A stretch of 64,000 nucleotides of DNA from Escherichia phage AV110. A program made the translations under genes and the position numbers. Shown here one piece after another: positions 10,089-54,756 of this stretch. The stretch's first letter is position 1, and every line of letters starts with the position of its first letter. The DNA lies in sequence record OR352940.1. One strand, 5' to 3'. Under the pieces are notes generated by a model. It searched no databases and was not told the DNA's origin. It worked only from the letters and a program-made list of their open reading frames with translations.

Positions 10089-11189
10089 TTACGCTGTGAA
10101 GATTTTATCCCACATCGCAACAACTGCATCTCGATTATACTTCTTCCATACTGCTTCAGCACGTTTAACTCGAGCTTCGTATGTGTCAGTGAATTCTAAT
10201 ACAGCTTTTGTGTAAAGCGCAACTACTTCTTTCTTAGGAGTAGAGGAATCAATTTCTACACGCACAGTATCTGGGTCATATTCGAATGTCGCGTGCGGAT
10301 AATCCTTAAAAACTAACTGAATCACAGGGACACCTTTAGAGATGGCTTCAATAGAACTATTCTCTACCGTACCTGTGTCAGGACACGTATTAATAAGTGC
10401 TTTAGCTGTTTTAAGACGTTCCATGATTTCACTGTGTGGAGCATCAATAATAACAGGATACTTAGCCGGTGGTGCCCATTTACTAGGACAGTATCCTGCA
10501 CCATTTTCGCCTAGTGCTTTAATCGCTTCAAGAGCAACATCAGTACGACGCATTTTAGTGTCATAACGTTGTGCACTAATAATCAGATCCGTCGCCGGAA
10601 GAACTTCAGGTTTCTCATTCAAACAAATAACCGGATAATCTTCGGCTTCAAACAACGGATTTGCTCGCCAATAATCATAATCAATTTTGTCAGTCAGACC
10701 TGAAGTCATATAACAATATTTGCGTTCAAATTCACGGAAGGCTTTAGTAGGAGCATAACTCTTACCACCATTCTTATGAATTTGAATAGTCTGGTCCCAA
10801 ATTTGAACAATGCCACGAGATACCGGTTCAAATGGTGTTGCCATAAAATTCTTATGAACTTTAGAGAGACCCGCGTCTTTAATTGCCTGAACGGTTAGTT
10901 TGGTCGGTTCCATTGTAACAACGAAATCATACTCATTAATGCCGGCTAGTTCAACAATCTTACGAGCCATAGTATAACTCATACCTAGACTGAATTTAGT
11001 CAGATGACCAACAGGATGATGATTAACTTTCCAATCACCAAATGTGTCATTATCAAAACCGATATAATCAATATCAGCACCGATGGACACAAGATATTTC
11101 AACACATTTAAATGTACTGCTTCAAGACCACCTTGTACACGGTCAGGATTAAATGGGACTGCACGAGATGGGATAAACATAACTTTCAT
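10089..11189 (-). CDS. GT-B fold glycosyltransferase, candidate DNA hmC glycosyl/arabinosyl-transferase
   Basis: 366 aa; GT4-like N-terminus MKVMFIPSRAVPF...GGLEAVHLNVLKYL and C-terminal E...EAISKGVPVIQ donor-binding pattern; third gene from rIIA, where T4 has gene 60/mobA. Confidence 0.6.
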   Translation of the reverse strand: MKVMFIPSRAVPFNPDRVQGGLEAVHLNVLKYLVSIGADIDYIGFDNDTFGDWKVNHHPVGHLTKFSLGMSYTMARKIVELAGINEYDFVVTMEPTKLTVQAIKDAGLSKVHKNFMATPFEPVSRGIVQIWDQTIQIHKNGGKSYAPTKAFREFERKYCYMTSGLTDKIDYDYWRANPLFEAEDYPVICLNEKPEVLPATDLIISAQRYDTKMRRTDVALEAIKALGENGAGYCPSKWAPPAKYPVIIDAPHSEIMERLKTAKALINTCPDTGTVENSSIEAISKGVPVIQLVFKDYPHATFEYDPDTVRVEIDSSTPKKEVVALYTKAVLEFTDTYEARVKRAEAVWKKYNRDAVVAMWDKIFTA

Positions 11190-13114: not shown

Positions 13115-13535
13115 ATTTAAATTTAATTTTCTGAAGTGCATCAATTGCAGCCAAACGCCCTTGTTCACTTTTAACTGTAATGACCACATCGCCTGATACG
13201 ATCACCGAACCATCAACAAATTCTATAGAGCCTTTTTTGAAATCGACAACTGTATCTGGTTCCGGAACTTCTTCAAAGAATTTAAATTCTGCACCATAAA
13301 TCAGAATATCACCTTGCATACTAATGATTGAACGTCCAGGTCCATCGGTTTCAGCGGCAATCATTGAAACACCATAACCAATCATCTCTTCTACAATAAA
13401 ATCTCTTGATAATAAAACTGTATGCAGAGTAGTGTTAAGACGTTTACCAGTCGTATTAAGAATTCTCAAGAAATTATCTTCCTGTCCTTTGATAATACGA
13501 TATTTCTTACCAACTTCAAAACCTTTAAAAGCCAT
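13113..13535 (-). CDS. hypothetical protein (140 aa)
   Basis: ORF downstream of gene 39; followed by UUCG hairpin terminator. Confidence 0.5.
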   Translation of the reverse strand: MAFKGFEVGKKYRIIKGQEDNFLRILNTTGKRLNTTLHTVLLSRDFIVEEMIGYGVSMIAAETDGPGRSIISMQGDILIYGAEFKFFEEVPEPDTVVDFKKGSIEFVDGSVIVSGDVVITVKSEQGRLAAIDALQKIKFK

Positions 13536-13537
13536 AA

Positions 13538-13717
13538 TTAACCCTTCTTAAGTAAGTCGTAAAAACCACCGTTCACATGTTTAGGAGCAGAAACCCGACG
13601 AGTAGACAGACGATGACATTCAGGGCAAACATCGTTTTCTCGTTCAGAAATTCTTTTAATTTTTTCATATTCATGACCACAATCTTCAGATTGACATTTA
13701 TAGTCGTATAACGGCAT
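13538..13717 (-). CDS. FmdB-like zinc-ribbon protein (59 aa)
   Basis: Hand-found [21 protein letters not shown]...CPEC (two CxxC pairs), TAATG-coupled to upstream ORF; below track cut-off. Confidence 0.5.
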   Translation of the reverse strand: MPLYDYKCQSEDCGHEYEKIKRISERENDVCPECHRLSTRRVSAPKHVNGGFYDLLKKG

Positions 13718-14130
13718 TATTGTTCCTTAAAGTGAGCTTTCAACATTTGATACAAAGACCATGCCTGGTCGTTATTTTTGATAGTAATCGTCATCACCGG
13801 AAATTCAGACAATTCATCAAGTTCTCCAGAGTCTTGCTCTTCAGACGCTTGATATGGATTTCCAACTTCGTCAAAGAACTCTGCTTCATTCGTGGAGAGC
13901 CAGATAAAGTTTTCATCAAGGATATCACCACCTGTCGCGTATCCAACCATGCCAGTAGATGTCACAATTTTAGTAGGACGATCAAGATGGTCAACATCTA
14001 ATACTTTAAATGGTTCCACGCCAAGACGTCGTGCATAAATCCCATTATCGGTGTGGTCCTTAATAAACTCTTCTTGGGCACGTTTATCTTTAAATTGGTA
14101 CCATGAGTTAACGCGGAATTTATTAGCCAT
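13717..14130 (-). CDS. hypothetical acidic protein (about 137 aa)
   Basis: Start taken at Met-7 (MANKF...) coupled to upstream stop; track lists 13717..14148. Confidence 0.5.
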
Positions 14131-14357
14131 TAGTAAGTTTCCTTCCAATAAGTTGTACCGTTTTCAGTGATTTCACGGAAGATACCGTAGATAGGCATTT
14201 CATCACCGAGTTTTTCGTAAACGTAAACCACTTCGGTGTAGCATAAAAATCCGGTCCAGTTTTTCTGTACAACAACTAAATCAGGATTAAACAGAACATC
14301 TTCAAACTCATCGATGTTTGAATCAGTAGTTACGTTTTTAATGATTTGACGTTTCAT
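14130..14357 (-). CDS. hypothetical protein (about 75 aa)
   Basis: ATG at 14357 with AGAGGAG RBS; track start 14402 lies inside the promoter. Confidence 0.45.
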
Positions 14358-14385
14358 AATATTCTCCTCTTGTTTTGATAGGTCT

Positions 14386-31547: not shown

Positions 31548-32096
31548 TTAACGAGCCCATTTGATGATTTCTGTAATCAAACCATTACGTTCGCTTGCAT
31601 TAAATCCTATAACTTTGTTAGCACCATCATGATTAAGTAATTGATATGTTTGGATTTTGTTATGAATTGCAAACTCTTCAAAATGTGAAATGACTGTATT
31701 AAAACCGAATGAAGACAAAGTAATAAGGTCGTCTTCAAAACTTTCAGTCATTTCGTTACGTGTTAAAATAATTGTGAACACATCATGGTTTTGGCAAAGA
31801 CGAACATAATCCTGTTCATAAACGTCAAGAACCGAGTCAGCATCTTGTCGAATACGTCCATAAACCCAGTTACTAATATATCCACGGTCTAACAGATAAA
31901 TCTTAGTAGGGTCTAAATAATTCAACATCGTTTCGAAACAGCCAACTTCATTTCGAGACTTAACATCGAAACGCCCATCAACTGTTCGTTTAGGGAAATC
32001 AATCTTTACATATCTTTCACTAATTTCCATTATGTCATTAATGAAAGTTGTTTTACCAGCATTATCCGGGCCATCTACTAAAATAATTTTAGCCAT
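31548..32096 (-). CDS. P-loop kinase-like protein (182 aa)
   Basis: Walker A ILVDGPDNAGKTT at N-terminus, small-kinase size; no T4 counterpart at this position. Confidence 0.5.
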   Translation of the reverse strand: MAKIILVDGPDNAGKTTFINDIMEISERYVKIDFPKRTVDGRFDVKSRNEVGCFETMLNYLDPTKIYLLDRGYISNWVYGRIRQDADSVLDVYEQDYVRLCQNHDVFTIILTRNEMTESFEDDLITLSSFGFNTVISHFEEFAIHNKIQTYQLLNHDGANKVIGFNASERNGLITEIIKWAR

Positions 32097-32097
32097 T

Positions 32098-32997
32098 TTA
32101 TTCCTCGATTACGACATCTTCATATTTAGGTATATTATACGGCGAAGAAATTAAAGCATTAAAGTAGATGAACTCACCAAGACCTGGATGGAATACTTCT
32201 TCAGGATTTTCGAAATATTGAATTTTCGGACGCCCTTTAAGAATTTGATAGTACTCTGTTTTAGTTGGTTTAAAAATTCGAATCAGCGCTTCTTCAGGAT
32301 ACTTATTTCTGTCGAAGCTATTATTTGGATCGGTTATATAAAGCGGTTGGCCTAATTGAATTGCACATTCAACCACTTGTTCAAAACGATAGCACGGGTC
32401 ACTAATTCGAAATGGATGAAAAATACCATCTAGATAAATAGGAGCCAAATCACCTACAAGACGCTGCATGATGGAAGGACGTATAACTTTCTGCGTTACG
32501 ATAATCTTATTACCATCTGCACCTGCGTTAACCAGCACTTCTTTTTGACGTTCATTCAACACAGTAGTTTGAAGTGAACGATTAACCGACAACATATCAG
32601 TTTTTAAGAATTCATCAATATAAAAACGTGGTTTATTAGGGTCTGCAGTGATATTGAAATTGAATTCCACATCAAAAGCGCCGTCATATCCAGTGATATC
32701 TGTGATTAGAAAATCACAGTCATAATAAGCAATTAATGAATCAACCACAAATCCATTTTCAGACCAGAAATATTTACGAGTGTTATACGCGTTATCTTTA
32801 TACCATAATGGAACAAACTTAAATTCTGGAAAAAGACGTTCGCATTCTTTAATATCAGATGCATTACGTGGATATGTAATCACATCACCCGGATTAGCAC
32901 GGTGCAAATGAAGTTGGAAGTTGCCATCCTTAAGGATAGCATACTGTCCAGTTTCATAAGACCGCATACTCAAGATTGGTACGCGGAAAATAGCCAT
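32098..32997 (-). CDS. protein at beta-glucosyltransferase position (299 aa), possible glycosyltransferase
   Basis: Occupies the slot between 42 and uvsX where T4 has beta-gt (351 aa); no confident motif. Confidence 0.4.
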   Translation of the reverse strand: MAIFRVPILSMRSYETGQYAILKDGNFQLHLHRANPGDVITYPRNASDIKECERLFPEFKFVPLWYKDNAYNTRKYFWSENGFVVDSLIAYYDCDFLITDITGYDGAFDVEFNFNITADPNKPRFYIDEFLKTDMLSVNRSLQTTVLNERQKEVLVNAGADGNKIIVTQKVIRPSIMQRLVGDLAPIYLDGIFHPFRISDPCYRFEQVVECAIQLGQPLYITDPNNSFDRNKYPEEALIRIFKPTKTEYYQILKGRPKIQYFENPEEVFHPGLGEFIYFNALISSPYNIPKYEDVVIEE

Positions 32998-33713
32998 TAG
33001 TCAAGGAATCCTTTAACATAATCAAAATCACGTTCAAACACATGGGCACTTACCATGGTATGAGTATAATCACCAACTTCTACACCGCATTCGTTAGCGA
33101 TATAATGAAGTAATTTTCCTTGGAGATAAAAATCCAACTGCATAACAACAGCACAGTTCTGAGAACGCATATGACAGTGGGTATAAAGCTTACCATCACG
33201 AATATAATAAGTCACTGAGTCAGTACATGGATATTCAAGTGTTTCGTCTGAATCAAGCAAAGCCTGATCAGAACTTTCTAGAATTTGGAACACAACTCTT
33301 CGGGAGTTAGGCTTCTCTTTAAGTTCTTTTAGAAGAGCTGGTAATTGAGCCGCAATGCGAGGACCATAGAAAGTGTTGAAGTTCGCCGGCAAAACATCTG
33401 ATTTTGGTTTAGAAATAAATTTAGCGACATTAGGATATGTCTTAAACGCTTCTTCTGCGTTGGTACCACCAGAAATCATAAACTTCCAGAAGTCTTCGGC
33501 ATATTCATAAGAGATGCGGTTAATACGTGGGTCGGTCATTTTGAATGATGATGGAGTGTCAACAACTACTGTCATAGACCCAATTTCATTACAACGTCCA
33601 ATACGAGAATCAGTTACGAATTCCGGGTTTTCTAAAATTTCACGATTGACTGCTTTAAATGCGGTTTGAAAATCTGCGGCTTTGATATATTTCATTGTGT
33701 TATGTTTTCCCAT
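32997..33713 (-). CDS. 42: dCMP hydroxymethylase gp42 (thymidylate-synthase fold)
   Basis: 238 aa; TS-like core with catalytic Cys context (LEYPCTDSVTYY...HCHMRSQN); size/position as T4 gene 42. Confidence 0.65.
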   Translation of the reverse strand: MGKHNTMKYIKAADFQTAFKAVNREILENPEFVTDSRIGRCNEIGSMTVVVDTPSSFKMTDPRINRISYEYAEDFWKFMISGGTNAEEAFKTYPNVAKFISKPKSDVLPANFNTFYGPRIAAQLPALLKELKEKPNSRRVVFQILESSDQALLDSDETLEYPCTDSVTYYIRDGKLYTHCHMRSQNCAVVMQLDFYLQGKLLHYIANECGVEVGDYTHTMVSAHVFERDFDYVKGFLD

Positions 33714-33755: not shown

Positions 33756-33995
33756 TTATTTGAATTTCTTGACAATGTTGACATAACGTAAAGCTTCAGC
33801 ATCGATACTTCCAAGAACACTATGAAGAAATGCATCAGCGTAGTATTCCAATTGAACAGGTTCTTTAATCACTTTAGCCGCTTTAGTTTCAAACAGGCCC
33901 ATCAGGGCCTTTTTAAGAATTTGTTCATTAGTGTTCAGATTCATAGTCAAAATCTCTTCATTAAGTTGGTGGTTAAAAGTTTTTCTAGAAATCAT
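33756..33995 (-). CDS. hypothetical protein (79 aa)
   Basis: ORF with ATGA overlap to upstream enzyme gene. Confidence 0.45.
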   Translation of the reverse strand: MISRKTFNHQLNEEILTMNLNTNEQILKKALMGLFETKAAKVIKEPVQLEYYADAFLHSVLGSIDAEALRYVNIVKKFK

Positions 33996-35152
33996 TCCGG
34001 GTACCTCAAAGCGTCATCAGAGTTAGTTATATCAATAATAGATATAGAGTTTTCTGCTAACCCGTTTTTAGATAATTGACGTTTATAATATCTTTCACAA
34101 TATGTACACGTCGTCCCGCAGATTTCATTAGCACAATCGAAATCTGGATGTCTGAACCACCTTTTTTCTAAAAAGCCATCTAACAAAGAGGTTTCAATAT
34201 TTACTGTATGTGAAAACTCAGTTTCGTTTTCAAGAGTGAAAATAGTCTCTAAAGGCTTCCACAGTTCTAACAAATTACCTTCAAACTTTTCAGAAGCGTA
34301 TGCTTCAAGAACTTTCAAAATGTAGTCTGTGCTACCTGTACGTCCTGAAACTTTGAATTGAGTGATACCAATATCATTATAAAGTTTCAAATCTTGAGGA
34401 CGAACAAAACGAGTTCTCAACCAGTTAAATGGGTCTGTATCACGAGCTTTAATACAGTGCTGCATAGGATATCCGTTTAAGGATTTAGCATCATCAGCTG
34501 TAACATCAGTACTATGGAAAATATAGCAAGAGTCACGATAGCTACAATGTGTTGTATACCCTTTACCAGCATTAGAACAGAACTCATTTACAAGAACTTC
34601 AAATATTATATTGTTCTTATTGCAAAACTCTGCTGCACGCTTCAGGAAAGAAACTGAACGGTTCTTATGAATTCCACAGCAGACCTTTTTGATATTATAT
34701 TGGTCATGCAAGTATTTGATTTGAGTTACAGCATCGACATGTAGAATTGTTGAAACTTCAATCTCAATGTCTTTATTGACTTCACGAACAATTTCCATAA
34801 CAACAGGGTTAGCGATAGTAATACGCCATACGCCTATTGACCAAAGATACTGAACATAATCCTGAATAGCTTTCTTCTTCCACTCAACTAGTTCTCTTTT
34901 TGAACCAGGATTTATCGTGTTGAGTGTATAGTTAAAGCAAATACCTAATTCGTTACAACGTTTAACGTAATCTTCTAACATCTTTTTGTCAACGTCAGGA
35001 AGCCTAAAATCAGGTCTGGCTGCTACAAAAGCCATTTCTCTTGTAGAGCCATATACTTCGTTTATCAAGCTATTAGGATAGGTTTTATTGAGCTCTACGA
35101 TTTTATCAAGAAGAGCTAAATCAAAATTTGTTCCGATTTTAAAAGTATTCAT
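33992..35152 (-). CDS. Cys-rich enzyme of unknown function (386 aa), possible Fe-S protein
   Basis: Several Cys clusters including C-x4-C-x3-C-x2-C near C-terminus (DCANEICGTTCTYCERY); embedded in the sugar-nucleotide cluster. Confidence 0.5.
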   Translation of the reverse strand: MNTFKIGTNFDLALLDKIVELNKTYPNSLINEVYGSTREMAFVAARPDFRLPDVDKKMLEDYVKRCNELGICFNYTLNTINPGSKRELVEWKKKAIQDYVQYLWSIGVWRITIANPVVMEIVREVNKDIEIEVSTILHVDAVTQIKYLHDQYNIKKVCCGIHKNRSVSFLKRAAEFCNKNNIIFEVLVNEFCSNAGKGYTTHCSYRDSCYIFHSTDVTADDAKSLNGYPMQHCIKARDTDPFNWLRTRFVRPQDLKLYNDIGITQFKVSGRTGSTDYILKVLEAYASEKFEGNLLELWKPLETIFTLENETEFSHTVNIETSLLDGFLEKRWFRHPDFDCANEICGTTCTYCERYYKRQLSKNGLAENSISIIDITNSDDALRYPE

Positions 35153-35211: not shown

Positions 35212-35613
35212 TTATAGATTCGGTTTATACGATTTAAATGTTTCGAATTCGCCTTTATTCATAAGAGCTTTGAATTCGTCAGGACGCATAGCTTTGTCGT
35301 CGATAATCCAATCATATACTGGTTTATGTGTTAGCAAATTATGGTACTTCAAGCCAATGTTTGCCAAGTTCTGAATCAGACTTGGGAGAATGTCAATTGC
35401 TATACGACCAGGACCTACTGACTTCATACCGCGAGCAGTGTAAAGCGTTATTGTATGCCCTGCATCATACAGAGCATTAATGGCAGACACCATTTCGACG
35501 TCCGGTTTGAAGTTCACATAATCACGATTGTTATTCCACTCTGTTATACAATCATCGACATCAAAACAAAGATTAAGCATGTTTTCTACACGGTGCATTA
35601 GATTCGTTCCCAT
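35212..35613 (-). CDS. HAD-superfamily phosphatase-like protein
   Basis: Motif I LCFDVDDCIT, motif II ITLYTAR, motif III K...DD; start may be Met-6 (TAATG-coupled at about 35598). Confidence 0.55.
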   Translation of the reverse strand: MGTNLMHRVENMLNLCFDVDDCITEWNNNRDYVNFKPDVEMVSAINALYDAGHTITLYTARGMKSVGPGRIAIDILPSLIQNLANIGLKYHNLLTHKPVYDWIIDDKAMRPDEFKALMNKGEFETFKSYKPNL

Positions 35614-37283
35614 TGATGAGTGATATCGCCACCGATTGGACGATAAGAAACACCAGTTTCTTTATCAGTTAGTACCCATTTACCAGGATTTTTTGTAATC
35701 AGAGTAGCCGTTACAGGTTCTGCTACGTCATAACTAATAGAGCCGTCCTGAAGTACACGGCCCATGTTACGTAATTGCTTAGTCAGAAGTTCCATACCTT
35801 TATAATATGCGGCTACCGCTTTAAGTGGATTATTCTTGAAATAACCACCTAATGCAATCCAGATAATTGCTACAGCCAAATGATGATATTCATTAAACGA
35901 ACTCAGCTTTCCATATTTGTAAACTAATGGATTGATGTTAATAGTCACATTACAAGTTGTTTCATCAATAGTAAACTGTCCCCAGGTCGGATTAGCGTTG
36001 AATTCATCATAACCTGAAACAGCGTAAAGCACTTTAGCTTCGTCGTACAATTTCGGCCCGTAAATCTTGGTTTCGCCAAAATATCCACGAGGGTCGATAA
36101 ACTTGACTTCGCCGTTATCAGTAATCATAGTATTACTGAAGTTCGGGTCACCATGAATAACAGAGTACTGTCCCTGAGAACGGTTATGATAACGAATAAG
36201 GTGTTCTAAAGCTTGTTTCAGCATTGGCTTCAGACGTCCAATCTTAGTGTAGTTCACATGTGTGATTTTACCAAATGAATCAATCAATGGTTGAATGCTT
36301 TCACAACGATCAATAACTTTCGTATAGAATTCTTTAGTGAAATCACGACGAACAGTTTCAGGACTTACAAAATAAGTGTCTGCGCTGAATTTCAGTGCAT
36401 CTAAAATTGCATCAATAATTTGTGGACGAGCAAGACTTGATTTTGATTTAATATATTCAAATGCCGGCTTACCTTTAATGCGTTCCATTTCAAAGTTATT
36501 TTCATTAACAGAAACTAACTGAGGAACTGAATCTGATTTCACTTTCAAATACCACGAAATCTCATCTTTCTGAAGAGCTCGACCCTGTTCGGTTAATGCG
36601 AATTTAGTTACAGTTTCTTCGCCAATTTCAACTGCATTAAAACTACGGTTCAGTTCACGAACTTCATGGGCCTTTTCAAGTTTAGGCATATCACCAAGGT
36701 CGATGATATTCATAAGCTCTGATTTATTGAATGCGCCGCTGTAAAGGAATTCTACGAAATCACGTCCTTTGCAGTATTCATGAATTTCCTCATCGGTAGA
36801 ACCCATATAGAATTCCCAGTCTTTGAACTGATAAATTCCTACAACATTACCGCCTGTTTCACCTACATTAGTGATATTTTCACCATCGAAATTATACCGA
36901 CATTCATCACCCTTAACATAGATTGCGTTAACATTCCAAGACCAAGAACCAAAATCGGGAATAATATCACACCAGTTAACAATTACATTATGGCCGTCTA
37001 AATCTTTGTGTAATTTAGCAAGAGCATAAGCAGAACCATACGCTTCATCAACTGTACGAATAGTCACATTGAACCCTTCTTGCTCACAATAAGCTCGAAC
37101 AGTTTCAGCAAATTTTGAATGAACTACTACAATAATTTCATCTGCGCCAAGGTCAGAATAAATTGTATACAAATTGCTCAGAATAGTGTCTTGCTTATAG
37201 TTAACAAGCACCTTAGGAATATGATGCGTTATTGGATACAAACGAGTTGCCAGTCCAGCACCAAGAATAACAGCTTTTTTCAT
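35598..37283 (-). CDS. bifunctional sugar-1-phosphate nucleotidyltransferase / APH-like sugar kinase
   Basis: 561 aa; N-terminus AVILGAGLATRLYPIT (RmlA/GlmU-type NTase signature); C-terminus VIHGDPNFSNTMI and FIDPRG (aminoglycoside/choline-kinase Brenner and DFG-like motifs). Confidence 0.7.
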   Translation of the reverse strand: MKKAVILGAGLATRLYPITHHIPKVLVNYKQDTILSNLYTIYSDLGADEIIVVVHSKFAETVRAYCEQEGFNVTIRTVDEAYGSAYALAKLHKDLDGHNVIVNWCDIIPDFGSWSWNVNAIYVKGDECRYNFDGENITNVGETGGNVVGIYQFKDWEFYMGSTDEEIHEYCKGRDFVEFLYSGAFNKSELMNIIDLGDMPKLEKAHEVRELNRSFNAVEIGEETVTKFALTEQGRALQKDEISWYLKVKSDSVPQLVSVNENNFEMERIKGKPAFEYIKSKSSLARPQIIDAILDALKFSADTYFVSPETVRRDFTKEFYTKVIDRCESIQPLIDSFGKITHVNYTKIGRLKPMLKQALEHLIRYHNRSQGQYSVIHGDPNFSNTMITDNGEVKFIDPRGYFGETKIYGPKLYDEAKVLYAVSGYDEFNANPTWGQFTIDETTCNVTININPLVYKYGKLSSFNEYHHLAVAIIWIALGGYFKNNPLKAVAAYYKGMELLTKQLRNMGRVLQDGSISYDVAEPVTATLITKNPGKWVLTDKETGVSYRPIGGDITHQWERI

Positions 37284-37324: not shown

Positions 37325-37468
37325 CTAGTTAAAGCATTCATACTTTGCCTGTAGACCAATCATAATCCATCCAATTACAAGTGTTGGAATCATTACCGGA
37401 GCCGTTAAGCTCCAGTAGATAGTCATGGCAAGCATCAATAGTAAAAGTCCTATTGTTATTGCTTTCAT
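37325..37468 (-). CDS. small membrane protein (47 aa)
   Basis: Hand-found ORF MKAITIGLLLLMLAMTIYWSL..., ATGA-coupled to upstream SIS gene; sits where T4 has imm/imm.1. Confidence 0.35.
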   Translation of the reverse strand: MKAITIGLLLLMLAMTIYWSLTAPVMIPTLVIGWIMIGLQAKYECFN

Positions 37469-38100
37469 TGTTCGCCTCGTAACATGGCACCTAGTGCACC
37501 ACCTGGATGGAACTTAAGGAAGTCATTAGAGGTAAATCCACGTTCAGACGAAAGGTTGATAGCGAACGTATCGATAAGCGCTAACAACAATGTAGTAGAC
37601 ATTGTCGGAGCTAAAGAGTTCTCGTCAACTTCTACCGCGATACCGGTACAGAACGTATAATCAAAAAGAGCTTCGTATTCTTGTGGAATGTCAGGGTTAC
37701 AATGTAACAGAATCTGTTTAACCTGAGGACGAATCATACGAAGATGTTTAGCAACACCTATCATTTCTTCAGTCTTACCAGAACGACTGATGTGAACTAA
37801 TACATCATTAGGTGCAATAAATCCTGCGTCACCATGAGAATAATGCCCAGTGTTCAAGTACATACTTGGGATACCGAGTGAAGCAAAAGTCTCGGAAGCT
37901 TTAGTTGCGATATTAGCGTTCTTACCAACACCTGTAATAATTACTCGGCTTTCATAATTACTAAGTCCCGGGCGTCGAAGAGTTTCTAGAATAGCATTAT
38001 AACGAGCAGGGTTTTGACTAATTACTTTAGCCATAGTGGCAAGAGATGAAGCTTGTTTTACGATTGCGTCAATAGCGATAGTGATTGGTGTAGTTTTCAT
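37465..38100 (-). CDS. SIS-domain sugar-phosphate isomerase, arabinose-5-phosphate isomerase (KdsD/GutQ)-like
   Basis: 211 aa; KdsD-type SIS motifs (TFASLGIPS, HGDAGF, ISRSGKT, LAPTMSTT, GFTSNDF..HPGGALG); lacks CBS domains. Confidence 0.7.
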   Translation of the reverse strand: MKTTPITIAIDAIVKQASSLATMAKVISQNPARYNAILETLRRPGLSNYESRVIITGVGKNANIATKASETFASLGIPSMYLNTGHYSHGDAGFIAPNDVLVHISRSGKTEEMIGVAKHLRMIRPQVKQILLHCNPDIPQEYEALFDYTFCTGIAVEVDENSLAPTMSTTLLLALIDTFAINLSSERGFTSNDFLKFHPGGALGAMLRGEQ

Positions 38101-52471: not shown

Positions 52472-52942
52472 TTAATCATGTTTCCACACCCCATCGGTAT
52501 TTGACCAAAGTCGCTGGTTATCTGATCCTCGCCACAGTTTTTTGGTCGGAAGATTTTTCTCATACTTCCCATCAATAATAACATCAACATATTTAAGCAT
52601 TTCTAGTTGTTTAATATCTTCAAACTTATATCCTGTCCACAACCAAATGCTTTTATTTGGATAAAGATTTTTTACTGTTTGAACAATGCAATGAATAACA
52701 TCTCGGTTATCAGGATAGAGAGGGTCACCTCCGGTTATAGTCAATCCTTCTATATAATCATTATTCAAACATTCAATTAATTGTTCTAGTGTTTCGCCAG
52801 TGAATGGAATACCATTTCTAGCATTCCATGTTGATTTATTATAACACCCTTCACATTTATGCAAACAACCTGTAACGAAAAGAACGACCCTGCAACCAGG
52901 GCCATTCACAAAATCGCAAGGATAAAATCTATCATAATTCAT
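52472..52942 (-). CDS. nrdG: anaerobic ribonucleotide reductase activating protein NrdG (radical SAM)
   Basis: 156 aa; radical-SAM cysteine cluster CLHKCEGC; overlaps nrdD end as in T4. Confidence 0.85.
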   Translation of the reverse strand: MNYDRFYPCDFVNGPGCRVVLFVTGCLHKCEGCYNKSTWNARNGIPFTGETLEQLIECLNNDYIEGLTITGGDPLYPDNRDVIHCIVQTVKNLYPNKSIWLWTGYKFEDIKQLEMLKYVDVIIDGKYEKNLPTKKLWRGSDNQRLWSNTDGVWKHD

Positions 52943-54756
52943 TGGTGTTTAACCCTATGCATGATTTCTTTATTTTTACCGAGATTAAATCCGCGTTCGT
53001 TCGGATTTCCCAAATAACCACAAGTTCTTCTTATTGTGTTCATCTTTTTAGGATCAGTTTCTCCGCAAACTGAACAAACAAATCCATTTTCAGTAGGAGT
53101 CATTTCATGAGTACTTCCGCATGTAAAACATTTATCTACTGGCATATTAACACCAAAATAATCTAAATGTTGTGCAGCATAATCCCATACAGCCTCAAGT
53201 CCCTTTAAATTGTTTTTCATATCTGGAAGTTCAACATAAGAAATGTGACCGCCTGTCGCAATGAAATGATACGGCGCTTCACGAGAAATCTTTTCAAACG
53301 GAGTAATATTTTCTTCTACTGAAACATGGAAACTATTAGTGTACCAGCCTTTATCTGTAACATCTTTTACACTTCCATATTTTTCTGTGTCGAGTTTACA
53401 AAAGCGATAACAAAGGTTTTCAGCAGGAGTAGAATATAAACTAAAAGCAAATCCGGTTCTTTCAGTCCACTGTTTAAGATGAGCATTCATTTTAGTTAAA
53501 ATTTCTTGTCCAATATCACGACCGACAAGAATATTCAATTCGTGAATACCAATGTATCCCAAAGACACTGAACTTCTACCGTTTTTAAATAACTCAATTA
53601 TATCGTCATCAGGTTTAAGACGAACCCCAAATGCACCTTCTTGGTAAAGAATAGGAGCAACAGTCGCTTTAACTCCTTTTAAGGAACTAATTCTACACAT
53701 CAAAGCTTCAAAACACAGGTCCATTCGTTCGTTAAATAGCTCAACAAATTTCTGTTCATTGAACTGTGTTCCAATATAAGAATCTAACGCAATACGAGGA
53801 AGATTCAGTGTTACAACACCAAGATTATTACGTCCATCAAGAATTTCATTACCAGTCGAATCTTTCCATACGCTCAAGAAACTACGGCAACCCATCGGAG
53901 AAACAGGAACTGAAGAACCGGTAATAGCTTTATTATTCTTAACCGAAATAATGTCAGGATACATTCTTTTGCTTGCACATTCTAACGCAAGTTGTTTAAT
54001 ATCATAGTTCGGATCGTCTTTATAAAGATTAACACCTTCTTCAACGAACATAACAAGCTTAGGGAAAATAGGAGTTATTCCATCACGACCAAGACCTTTA
54101 ATGCGGTTTTTAAGAATTGCCTTCTGAATCATTCGTTCAGTCCAATCGGTTCCCGTACCAAATGTAATTGTTACAAAAGGAGTTTGTCCGTTTGAACTAA
54201 AGAGAGTATTTACTTCATATTCATAAGCTTGGAATGCGTCATAGACATCTTTTTCTGTTTTAGATTGAGCATAATTCAGAATGTCTGGTATTTGCCATTT
54301 TTCTGCATCTTCAACATGTTTAGCGTATGTACGTTTAACATAAGGAGAAAGAACTTTATCGACATTCGCAAATGTAGTTCCGCCATACTGATGTGAAGCA
54401 ACCTGTGCAGTAATTTGTGCCATAATTGCAGTAGCAACGCCAATAGATTTAGGCGTTTCAATTTGAGCATTGCCTAATTTAAATCCATTCTCAAGCATCC
54501 CCTTTAAATCGACTAAACAGCAATTGGTAAACGGAAGAGCAGGAGAATAATCAATATCATGCATGTGAATGATTCCGCTTTCATGCGCATTCATAATAAA
54601 AGACGGGACCATATTTTTGGCAATGTGCTTAGACACAATACCAGCCATAAGGTCCCGTTGAGTTGGAAAAACACGAGAATCTTTATTAGCATTCTCGTTT
54701 AAAAGGTCTTTATTAGTTTTATGAATTAATCCTTCAATTTCTTTTTCAATTTTCAT
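52939..54756 (-). CDS. nrdD: anaerobic ribonucleotide reductase NrdD (glycyl radical enzyme)
   Basis: 605 aa; C-terminal glycyl-radical motif RTCGYLG and Zn-ribbon CFTCGSTHE...CSVCG; uninterrupted (no intron). Confidence 0.9.
   Translation of the reverse strand: MKIEKEIEGLIHKTNKDLLNENANKDSRVFPTQRDLMAGIVSKHIAKNMVPSFIMNAHESGIIHMHDIDYSPALPFTNCCLVDLKGMLENGFKLGNAQIETPKSIGVATAIMAQITAQVASHQYGGTTFANVDKVLSPYVKRTYAKHVEDAEKWQIPDILNYAQSKTEKDVYDAFQAYEYEVNTLFSSNGQTPFVTITFGTGTDWTERMIQKAILKNRIKGLGRDGITPIFPKLVMFVEEGVNLYKDDPNYDIKQLALECASKRMYPDIISVKNNKAITGSSVPVSPMGCRSFLSVWKDSTGNEILDGRNNLGVVTLNLPRIALDSYIGTQFNEQKFVELFNERMDLCFEALMCRISSLKGVKATVAPILYQEGAFGVRLKPDDDIIELFKNGRSSVSLGYIGIHELNILVGRDIGQEILTKMNAHLKQWTERTGFAFSLYSTPAENLCYRFCKLDTEKYGSVKDVTDKGWYTNSFHVSVEENITPFEKISREAPYHFIATGGHISYVELPDMKNNLKGLEAVWDYAAQHLDYFGVNMPVDKCFTCGSTHEMTPTENGFVCSVCGETDPKKMNTIRRTCGYLGNPNERGFNLGKNKEIMHRVKHQ

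Follow-up and report, generated by a model that had tools for sequence, protein, structure and literature searches.

Proteins of the peptidase U32 family that have been characterized in cells are not proteases; they are iron-sulfur (Fe-S) proteins required for hydroxylation that is independent of O2 and dependent on prephenate (PMC5727448, PMC6599085, PMC6747719, PMC10990095). RlhA converts cytidine to 5-hydroxycytidine (ho5C) at C2501 of 23S rRNA, for which it needs prephenate, Fe-S biogenesis, and also two C-terminal cysteines, C580 and C611 (PMC5727448). TrhP converts uridine to 5-hydroxyuridine at tRNA position 34 (ho5U34) (PMC6599085), and a Glu-Cys-Cys set within the U32 motif is essential in both TrhP and RlhA (PMC6599085, PMC5727448). 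UbiU and UbiV each bind a [4Fe-4S] cluster through four cysteines (PMC6747719), and when ubiquinone is made with UbiU/V, the oxygen is donated by prephenate, as 18O labeling has shown (PMC10990095). Here, we analyzed a U32-family gene of Escherichia phage AV110, located at positions 33992..35152 on the minus strand of a 64,000-nucleotide stretch of sequence record OR352940.1, referred to below as the window. Weighing the evidence that follows, we lean toward the view that its product provides an O2-independent route to 5-hydroxy-dCMP for arabinosyl-5-hydroxycytosine DNA, with prephenate as the oxygen donor.

The window is that of a Mosigvirus, an RB69-like T-even phage. The DNA of RB69 carries arabinosyl-5-hydroxycytosine and not arabinosyl-hydroxymethylcytosine (Lee et al. 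2026, PMC13326640), and hydroxymethylcytosine is not the modified base of RB69-type DNA. In the same study, the ThyA homologue gp48 was found to make 5-hydroxy-dCMP in an in vivo assay and to bind flavin, and 18O2 labeling traced the incorporated oxygen to O2. Cytosine is replaced completely in RB69, pre-replicatively and at the mononucleotide level, and UDP-arabinose is made by the products of the SIS, AfhE-like, and AfhF-like genes, from ribulose 5-phosphate through arabinose 5-phosphate, arabinose 1,5-bisphosphate, and arabinose 1-phosphate (PMC13326640). The U32 protein of RB69, RB69p050, appears in that paper in Table 1 only, as "Sugar or heterocycle reductase" from a fold match to PDB entry 5d88, and the text contains none of the words U32, peptidase, Fe-S, or prephenate (PMC13326640). 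For phage 5-hydroxycytosine, the one route known so far depends on O2, even though the hosts of these phages are bacteria of the gut.

Family and fold of the U32 protein

The open reading frame (ORF) begins with ATG and encodes 386 aa, and the protein is 99.5% identical to its RB69 orthologue, gp50. The 6.6-kb region around it shows 98-99% identity to many Escherichia and Shigella phages, and tblastn finds homologues of the gene in 221 phage records. The gene is under strong purifying selection: dN/dS, the ratio of nonsynonymous to synonymous substitution rates, is at most 0.07 wherever dS is unsaturated, and the U32 protein is the most conserved of its cluster, at 83-87% identity versus 71-82% for the ThyA homologue. 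A chance ORF was ruled out by the Pfam, PHROG, tblastn, and profile matches together with the low dN/dS. A scan for promoters and terminators around the gene gave no signal above chance. The tblastn search of the phage collection returned no homologue below 80% identity, which we take to bear out the original prediction that T4 has no counterpart. In one record, that of Escherichia phage OLB35, the gene is entered as two proteins of 269 and 108 aa (A0A3G3MCS7 and A0A3G3MCT7 in BFVD); this is probably a frameshift or a sequencing error, like the splits of gp46:47 and gp52:53 in the RB69 record.

The encoded protein consists of one domain and belongs to the "peptidase U32" superfamily. It matches Pfam PF01136 (Peptidase_U32) over residues 94-286 with 42.2 bits against a gathering threshold (GA) of 22.4, a weak match that marks it as a divergent member, and it matches PHROG 5757 end to end. 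Using hhalign, a profile of 121 homologues was compared with the four U32 paralogues of E. coli (TrhP, RlhA, UbiU, and UbiV) and aligned with them at a probability of 97.6% and an E value of 1.5e-11 over residues 9-302. An AlphaFold2 model built from an 81-sequence alignment shows a beta/alpha (TIM) barrel with a mean predicted local distance difference test (pLDDT) score of 92.9 and a predicted template modeling (pTM) score of 0.91. The top fold match of this model in the PDB is 5d88, with a Foldseek E value of 3e-7 and a template modeling (TM) score of 0.67 on the target. A relation to the U32 family, which the original prediction had put forward for checking, is therefore supported by Pfam, by profile alignment, and by fold. 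A direct sequence comparison with solved structures returned nothing meaningful, and TrhP is likewise without a solved relative by this approach. A fold search of BFVD recovered only the same protein and a few viral U32-like proteins.

Within the superfamily, the phage protein stands apart. No NCBIfam equivalog model was reached; only UbiU was touched, with 18.5 bits against a cut-off of 440. A Pfam scan found neither DUF3656 nor the TrhP C-terminal domain. Judged by sequence, the phage protein is a separate subfamily and no orthologue of RlhA, TrhP, UbiU, or UbiV. A profile of this subfamily matches 486 clusters at 50% identity with E<=1e-30, and at E<=1e-3 it retrieves only 1,695 of 1.84 billion representatives.

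Conserved cysteines and the U32 motif

The protein contains 13 cysteines (3.4%), at residues 66, 72, 158, 159, 177, 192, 203, 209, 233, 340, 345, 349, and 352, and the several cysteine clusters described in the original prediction, including C340-x4-C345-x3-C349-x2-C352, are present as described. Across 121 homologues, down to ~48% identity, nine of them are invariant (C158, C192, C203, C209, C233, C340, C345, C349, and C352), C177 is kept in 118, and only C66, C72, and C159 vary. Conservation of this kind is as expected for the metal or Fe-S binding that had been suggested.

Two regions stand out. The U32 motif region runs from E185 to C233 (34454..34600, minus strand; EVLVNEFCSNAGKGYTTHCSYRDSCYIFHS...GYPMQHC) and holds E185, E190, C192, C203, C209, and C233. 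The hhalign alignment places E185 on TrhP E162, C203 on C170, and C209 on C177, which correspond to E161, C169, and C176 of RlhA, and these three phage residues are invariant or nearly so in the 121 close homologues. C192 sits in a 10-residue insertion specific to the subfamily, and the invariant cysteines of the U32 region (C192, C203, C209, and C233) are spaced CX10CX5CX23C. The second region is the C-terminal cluster of C340, C345, C349, and C352 (34097..34135, minus strand; CANEICGTTCTYC), a candidate second metal or Fe-S site, whose four cysteines are all present in 120 of 120 close homologues and in which G346 and Y351 are also nearly invariant. Among 128 divergent members of the subfamily, C192 is kept in 126, C233 in all 128, and the four C-terminal cysteines in 108-114, with a shorter C345-C349 spacing in 54. 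The phage U32 protein is probably Fe-S-binding.

Gene linkage to prephenate supply

We surveyed 56 loci that carry the subfamily, 47 from IMG/VR and 9 from metagenomes, which were screened with seed proteins. Sixteen are T4-like. The 40 others reduce to 30 distinct loci at 95% U32 identity, and their U32 proteins are 40-55% identical to that of the window. Loci are cited below by their survey numbers (L006 and so on) where coordinates are given.

In Enterobacter phage Entb_45, the gene overlapping the U32 stop codon encodes an AroQ chorismate mutase (Pfam CM_2, 40.9 bits against a GA of 27). The family of this phage mutase was found by tblastn in 56 phage records, and a monofunctional chorismate mutase gene lies between the U32 and ThyA-like genes in 14 of the 16 T4-like loci as well as in Serratia phage LC53, whose record, from the laboratory of Mahler et al., labels the two products "putative peptidase" (U32) and "chorismate mutase domain-containing protein." Outside the T4-like loci, fusions of 3-deoxy-D-arabino-heptulosonate 7-phosphate (DAHP) synthase with chorismate mutase adjoin the U32 gene (L040:8411-9433, L041:9-971/L043:7302-8357, L044:8332-9387, and L054:11079-12197), both Pfam domains scoring above GA. 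DAHP synthase alone adjoins it in two more (L009:8145-8891 and L029:9384-10130; 221-237 bits to DAHP synthase models versus 61-67 to 3-deoxy-D-manno-octulosonate 8-phosphate [KDO8P] synthase). Altogether, DAHP synthase with or without chorismate mutase adjoins U32 in 6 of the 30 distinct non-T4 loci. These three gene arrangements provide a strong, if indirect, indication that the U32 subfamily is tied to prephenate supply. The papers searched contain no description of phage DAHP synthase or DAHP synthase-chorismate mutase genes beside U32.

KDO8P synthase, which would have offered a link to arabinose 5-phosphate, was considered for the DAHP_synth_1 neighbors and rejected, as they score 124-237 bits with DAHP models versus 30-63, and CM_2 is fused in five.

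Distribution relative to the O2-dependent hydroxylase

The U32 gene and a ThyA-like gene occur together in all 16 T4-like loci. No ThyA-type hydroxylase gene was found within +/-10 kb of U32 in any of the 30 non-T4 loci, even using a superfamily profile with filters off; the sole ThyA-superfamily match, in L031, is an ordinary thymidylate synthase. A glycosyltransferase like the DNA arabinosyltransferase 1 (AraT1) of the window is present in 22 of these 30 loci, in 18 of them no more than 3 kb away; it is always on the strand of U32 and often overlaps it. In phmmer comparisons, AraT1 (32098..32997) matches the glycosyltransferases beside U32 in non-T4 loci with 26-59 bits. Other genes of the pathway recur as well, likewise on the strand of U32, with an AfhE-like nucleotidyltransferase-kinase in 13 of the 30, an SIS isomerase in 9, and a dCMP deaminase in 6. 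Further genes of the non-T4 loci encode TAGT together with UDP-galactopyranose mutase (GLF), NT5C, and dNK, again on that strand, as well as dUTPase/DCD and Tmk-like kinases. A glycosylation module therefore travels with U32 in place of the ThyA-type enzyme, as expected if U32 supplies the acceptor hydroxyl.

Phage hosts show a related pattern. A gene for the ThyA-like synthase was found in 373 phage records, 57 of them from Acinetobacter and 20 from Rhizobium phages, and all host genera named in the 221 U32 records are Enterobacterales or Shewanella. The hosts of the U32 phages are facultative anaerobes, in contrast to the obligately aerobic Acinetobacter and Rhizobium. In Acinetobacter phage Mokit, the SIS, AfhE, HAD, ThyA-like, glycosyltransferase, and kinase genes follow the same order as in the window, and the HAD gene abuts the ThyA-like gene; neither U32 nor chorismate mutase was found in the Mokit cluster.

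Proposed function and mechanism

We propose, by analogy, that the U32 and ThyA-like genes form an anaerobic/aerobic pair, like TrhP and TrhO, UbiU-V and UbiI-H-F, or the phage's own NrdDG and NrdAB. The window encodes NrdD, the anaerobic ribonucleotide reductase (52939..54756, minus strand; 605 aa, 572 bits), and NrdG, its radical S-adenosylmethionine (SAM) activase (52472..52942, minus strand; 164 bits); one anaerobic-only path to DNA precursors is thus already present in this phage. The original prediction as a whole holds up in part; of the two targets it names for an additional chemical step, the base is likelier than the sugar. However, the base is 5-hydroxycytosine made by the ThyA-like flavin mononucleotide (FMN)- and O2-dependent enzyme, so the U32 protein probably adds no further chemical step, and a second, O2-independent route to C5 hydroxylation is the better account. 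We infer all of Fe-S binding, prephenate use, O2 independence, the substrate, and the role as an anaerobic backup.

In the proposed scheme, gp48 would be inactive under anoxia, as an enzyme that uses FMN and O2. The U32 protein would oxidize C5 of dCMP, which the phage dCTPase (23171..23707) would help to supply. The hydroxyl would come from prephenate, which would lose CO2 to give phenylpyruvate, as in the scheme put forward for UbiU/V (PMC10990095), and the Fe-S site or sites would hand two electrons on to some acceptor. The 5-hydroxy-dCMP would then be converted to the triphosphate by the dNMP kinase of the phage together with the NDP kinase of the host, the polymerase would incorporate 5-hydroxycytosine, and the two arabinosyltransferases (AraT1 and a second one at 10089..11189) would decorate it, these last steps being as described by Lee et al. 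(PMC13326640).

The supply of prephenate could be important for such a route. We estimate ~62,000 cytosines per genome (window G+C 0.371, genome ~168 kb), and on the order of 10^7 hydroxylations per infected cell, which would be a sizeable share of the prephenate flux of one cell generation. The further inputs to this rough estimate are a T-even burst of 100-200 and the textbook demand for Phe and Tyr. A prephenate need this large would explain the presence of chorismate mutase or DAHP synthase in many lineages.

Several observations weigh against this proposal. First, gp48 alone makes 5-hydroxydeoxycytidine aerobically in E. coli (PMC13326640), so the U32 protein is dispensable at least in air. 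Second, the Mosigvirus lineage of the window lacks chorismate mutase and carries an unrelated 79-aa ORF in its slot, and prephenate would therefore have to come from host PheA/TyrA. Third, the canonical third and fourth cysteines of the four-cysteine U32 motif have no aligned counterpart in the hhalign comparison, and C203 and C209 are kept in only ~60% of the 128 divergent members, so any assignment of cysteines to the candidate metal sites is tentative. The consensus of U32 Fe-S hydroxylases, CX6CX15CX3/4C, binds [4Fe-4S], and UbiU and UbiV deviate from it too (PMC6747719). Fourth, Dhakavirus-type phages of E. coli (Bp7) manage the pathway with no U32 gene, only a small number of independent lineages underlies the host pattern, and the absence of ThyA-type enzymes from non-T4 loci holds for the 10 kb around U32. 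Finally, in vitro hydroxylation has so far been achieved for no U32 protein (PMC10990095).

A broader claim, about evenly poised and if anything slightly less likely than not, is that this is the first U32 hydroxylase to act on a free nucleotide and the founder of a large viral subfamily. It would back up the ThyA-like enzyme in phages of facultative anaerobes and in many uncultured phages be the sole maker of the hydroxyl that carries the glycosyl hypermodifications of their DNA. Each modified base would cost one molecule of prephenate, and for this reason some phages would bring a chorismate mutase or a DAHP synthase-chorismate mutase fusion that pushes host carbon to prephenate.

Alternative explanations

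In the closest alternative, the enzyme would be a prephenate-dependent U32 hydroxylase with another substrate or timing, acting on cytosine within DNA, on dCDP or dCTP, or on a uracil nucleotide. RlhA and TrhP both act on polymers, DNA-acting glycosyltransferase genes overlap U32 in several loci, and a dCMP deaminase gene overlapping or abutting U32 in L006 and L010 would fit a uracil product or substrate. We nevertheless regard this as unlikely. The 386 aa of the protein make up one domain, and the DUF3656 and C-terminal domains that RlhA and TrhP carry are missing. The neighboring genes encode enzymes of mononucleotides (NT5C, dNK, dCMP deaminase, Tmk-like kinases, and enzymes of the dCTPase type), and the timing and level of cytosine replacement in RB69 (PMC13326640) point to a nucleotide substrate.

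In NDP-arabinose synthesis, the protein might be a reductase of sugars or heterocycles, in line with the label published for RB69p050 (Table 1 of PMC13326640), or might tailor the sugar in some other way; in our view, this is improbable. The published route to UDP-arabinose has no redox step and is complete without the U32 protein, and Acinetobacter phages make arabinosyl-5-hydroxycytosine without a U32 gene. It is true that the gene is flanked by sugar-activation genes and keeps company with SIS, AfhE-like, and epimerase genes in non-T4 loci, and that the TIM barrel is common to many sugar-phosphate enzymes and to methylenetetrahydrofolate reductase. The specific match in both fold and sequence, however, is to U32 and to no reductase family, and a sugar role would leave unexplained why chorismate mutase and DAHP synthase genes lie alongside.

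The C-terminal cysteines raise the question of a radical enzyme, as the original prediction had suggested checking. Here, C345-x3-C349-x-Y351-C352 would hold a site-differentiated [4Fe-4S] cluster that cleaves SAM; the spacing fits CxxxCxPhiC, the close family keeps Y351 and G346 almost without exception, and the protein is a barrel. This idea did not survive closer inspection and is highly improbable. No match to Radical_SAM, Fer4_12 (E<=0.1), or SPASM was found, whereas the NrdG of the same window scores 164 bits. Furthermore, C340, as a fourth invariant cysteine, would fully ligate the cluster, the CX3C spacing between C345 and C349 shrinks in 54 of the 128 divergent members, the motif lies in a C-terminal tail after a complete U32 barrel, and some loci carry distinct radical-SAM genes next to U32.

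Less plausible again is a mimic of host RlhA or TrhP that hydroxylates RNA, at the tRNA wobble uridine or at C2501 of 23S rRNA, and thereby tunes translation. Modification of RNA is the sole nucleic-acid activity attributed to U32 proteins to date, and T-even phages encode their own tRNAs. Yet the protein reaches no NCBIfam equivalog (the 18.5 bits to UbiU being the only contact) and lacks the extra domains of RlhA and TrhP, its gene keeps its place within clusters for DNA modification and nucleotides in T4-like and unrelated phages alike, and U32 is absent from T-even phages without the 5-hydroxycytosine pathway. Most GenBank records and the historical family name (PrtC collagenases) would make the protein a true peptidase or collagenase; this reading can practically be dismissed, since U32 "peptidases" have no known catalytic mechanism, characterized members are tied to hydroxylation, the invariant residues are the Cys, Glu, and Arg of the Fe-S/U32 motif, and nothing in the gene context is linked to proteolysis.

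The modification cluster of the window

As the original prediction had it, the gene lies inside a modification cluster, a minus-strand block between gp43 DNA polymerase and UvsX in the order SIS isomerase, nucleotidyltransferase-kinase, HAD phosphatase, U32, 79-aa ORF, ThyA homologue, glycosyltransferase, and thymidylate-kinase-like gene. The SIS-domain arabinose-5-phosphate isomerase (37465..38100, minus strand; RB69 gp55 orthologue) was assigned from Pfam SIS and PHROG 5670. The bifunctional nucleotidyltransferase and kinase (35598..37283, minus strand; AfhE-like, RB69 gp52:53 orthologue) matches Pfam NTP_transferase and, weakly, kinase families, and the HAD-type phosphatase (35212..35613, minus strand; AfhF-like, RB69 gp51 orthologue) matches PHROG 1238; the roles of these two, that of the phosphatase being in UDP-arabinose synthesis, are taken from PMC13326640.

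Downstream of U32 and ~280 bp from it lies the gene for the ThyA-like 5-hydroxy-dCMP synthase (32997..33713, minus strand; RB69 gp48 orthologue, FMN/O2-dependent; PMC13326640), which matches Pfam Thymidylat_synt and is ~99% identical to its Mosigvirus orthologues. It is followed by AraT1 (minus strand; RB69 gp46:47 orthologue, PHROG 3891, with the assignment from PMC13326640) and by a thymidylate-kinase-like nucleotide kinase (31548..32096, minus strand; RB69 gp45 orthologue, PHROG 761, and Table 1 of PMC13326640). Many public records name the ThyA homologue "dCMP hydroxymethylase" and the glycosyltransferase at 10089-11189 "hmC-arabinosyltransferase." These annotations are outdated because the base is 5-hydroxycytosine (PMC13326640).

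The 79-aa ORF between U32 and the ThyA homologue (33756..33995, minus strand) belongs to the ORF049c family (PHROG 8601), has no cysteine, and overlaps the U32 stop by 4 nt. We considered whether it is a chorismate mutase and rejected this, as it has no Pfam or NCBIfam match and compares with the phage mutases only at a BLASTP E value of 6.8 and an hhalign probability of 0.2%. A single-sequence AlphaFold2 model of the ORF is poor, with a pLDDT of 65.6. It could be a partner of the U32 protein. An ORF049c-family ORF and a chorismate mutase gene are both present, side by side, in Yersinia phages and in PM2, and in EcS1 and phages of the Serratia CHI14 type (L024 and L026), the N-terminal "RINHxMNE" motif of ORF049c appears fused ahead of the mutase domain.

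Variant loci

Some loci depart from this arrangement. Among the T4-like loci, four of the Klebsiella/Proteus type (L016, L020, L021, and L027) lack the SIS isomerase, and arabinose 5-phosphate is therefore presumably made by host KdsD/GutQ; L016 also lacks chorismate mutase. In phage LC53 (L064:4854-5492), a putative endonuclease gene, possibly of the homing type, is inserted between the HAD phosphatase and U32 genes.

In two large phage contigs, one of 466 kb, a dCMP/cytidine deaminase gene overlaps U32 (L006:7447-9086) or directly precedes it (L010:6504-8083). In these contigs, which also carry uracil-DNA glycosylase (UDG)-like and thymidylate-kinase-like genes, a derivative of 5-hydroxyuracil might take the place of 5-hydroxycytosine as the modified base. 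Genes for radical SAM-SPASM proteins stand beside U32 in three unrelated contexts (L006:1-249, L007:12160-13185, and L013:4980-6011). L007 additionally has a second, very divergent U32-like gene (13227-14360) as well as genes for NT5C, dNK, and a nucleoside deoxyribosyltransferase, a context that could reflect a different nucleoside-level pathway or a maturation partner. Two further loci (L012:6028-13179 and L037:9010-16284) share the order glycosyltransferase, U32, TAGT (a DNA-base glycosyltransferase), dCTP deaminase/dUTPase, and, after intervening genes, UDP-galactopyranose mutase. This looks like a galactofuranosyl-type hypermodification, predicted to be built on a U32-made hydroxyl, and recalls Rhizobium phage RL38J1 minus the ThyA-type enzyme.

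Novelty and implications

The U32 annotation in GenBank, where the gene is labeled "peptidase," "collagenase-like protease," or "putative protease," and the 5d88 fold match (PMC13326640) were already public. The papers on phage Thanatos and on the Durham phage collection assign no role to the U32 gene. In no paper was phage DNA modification connected with U32, prephenate, or chorismate mutase, in a full-text search whose coverage did not extend to He et al. 2026 and Mahler et al. 2025, so that a prior description is possible.

If the proposal is correct, it would explain how phages in anoxic habitats maintain the modification and, through it, their protection from restriction and CRISPR, which bears on gut phage therapy. 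Prephenate-dependent hydroxylation, so far a matter of RNA and quinones, would come to include DNA precursors and viruses, and chorismate mutase and DAHP synthase would become phage auxiliary metabolic genes with a defined purpose. The U32 field is without an in vitro assay or a structure of a hydroxylase member (PMC10990095), and a small, soluble, single-chain enzyme of 386 aa acting on dCMP, a commercial nucleotide, would permit in vitro reconstitution. Additionally, U32 together with an AraT1-like glycosyltransferase is a genomic marker for new glycosylated-pyrimidine DNA in uncultured phages that lack ThyA-type enzymes.

Comparison with known systems

The closest solved structure is that of Mk0906, the U32 protein of Methanopyrus kandleri (PDB 5d88), which is also the match reported for RB69p050 (PMC13326640). 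It is 11% identical to the phage protein and covers the barrel only (247 aa), not the Cys-rich C-terminal extension.

The ThyA-like 5-hydroxy-dCMP synthases (RB69 gp48, DLP3 gp80, and the HY126 homologue) share the cluster and the proposed product with the U32 protein. They differ in having a thymidylate synthase fold, in using FMN, and in needing O2, and they occur in Acinetobacter and Rhizobium phages in which no U32 was found.

UbiU and UbiV, which work with UbiT, resemble the phage protein in belonging to the U32 family and in being anaerobic counterparts of flavin- and O2-dependent hydroxylases, and UbiU provides the sole NCBIfam model that the phage protein touches. They act, however, as a heterodimer with a lipid-binding accessory protein on a lipid substrate, and their cysteine motif is CX6CX16CX38C, versus CX10CX5CX23C and a C-terminal CX4CX3CX2C in the phage protein.

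TrhP and TrhO offer the nearest parallel to the proposed pairing. In both cases, a prephenate-dependent U32 enzyme and an unrelated O2-dependent enzyme would make the same C5-hydroxypyrimidine, the latter being here the ThyA-like FMN enzyme. TrhP and TrhO are both kept in organisms that meet oxic and anoxic conditions (PMC6599085). The O2-dependent partner is a rhodanese in the case of TrhO and a thymidylate synthase homologue in the phage, where the substrate would be a DNA precursor and not tRNA.

In its chemistry, the phage protein is most readily compared with RlhA (YdcP). The essential Glu and two Cys of RlhA align with E185, C203, and C209, both proteins have C-terminal cysteines, and the product of RlhA is a C5-hydroxylated cytosine. 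RlhA, however, has 653 aa with a DUF3656 domain and modifies one rRNA residue, whereas the phage protein is a single domain of 386 aa with no equivalog-level similarity, a 10-residue insertion, an extra invariant cysteine, and no canonical third or fourth cysteine. Its proposed substrate is a free deoxynucleotide, hydroxylated stoichiometrically for the whole genome. We propose that the phage proteins may form a viral, nucleotide-directed branch of the prephenate-dependent U32 hydroxylases.

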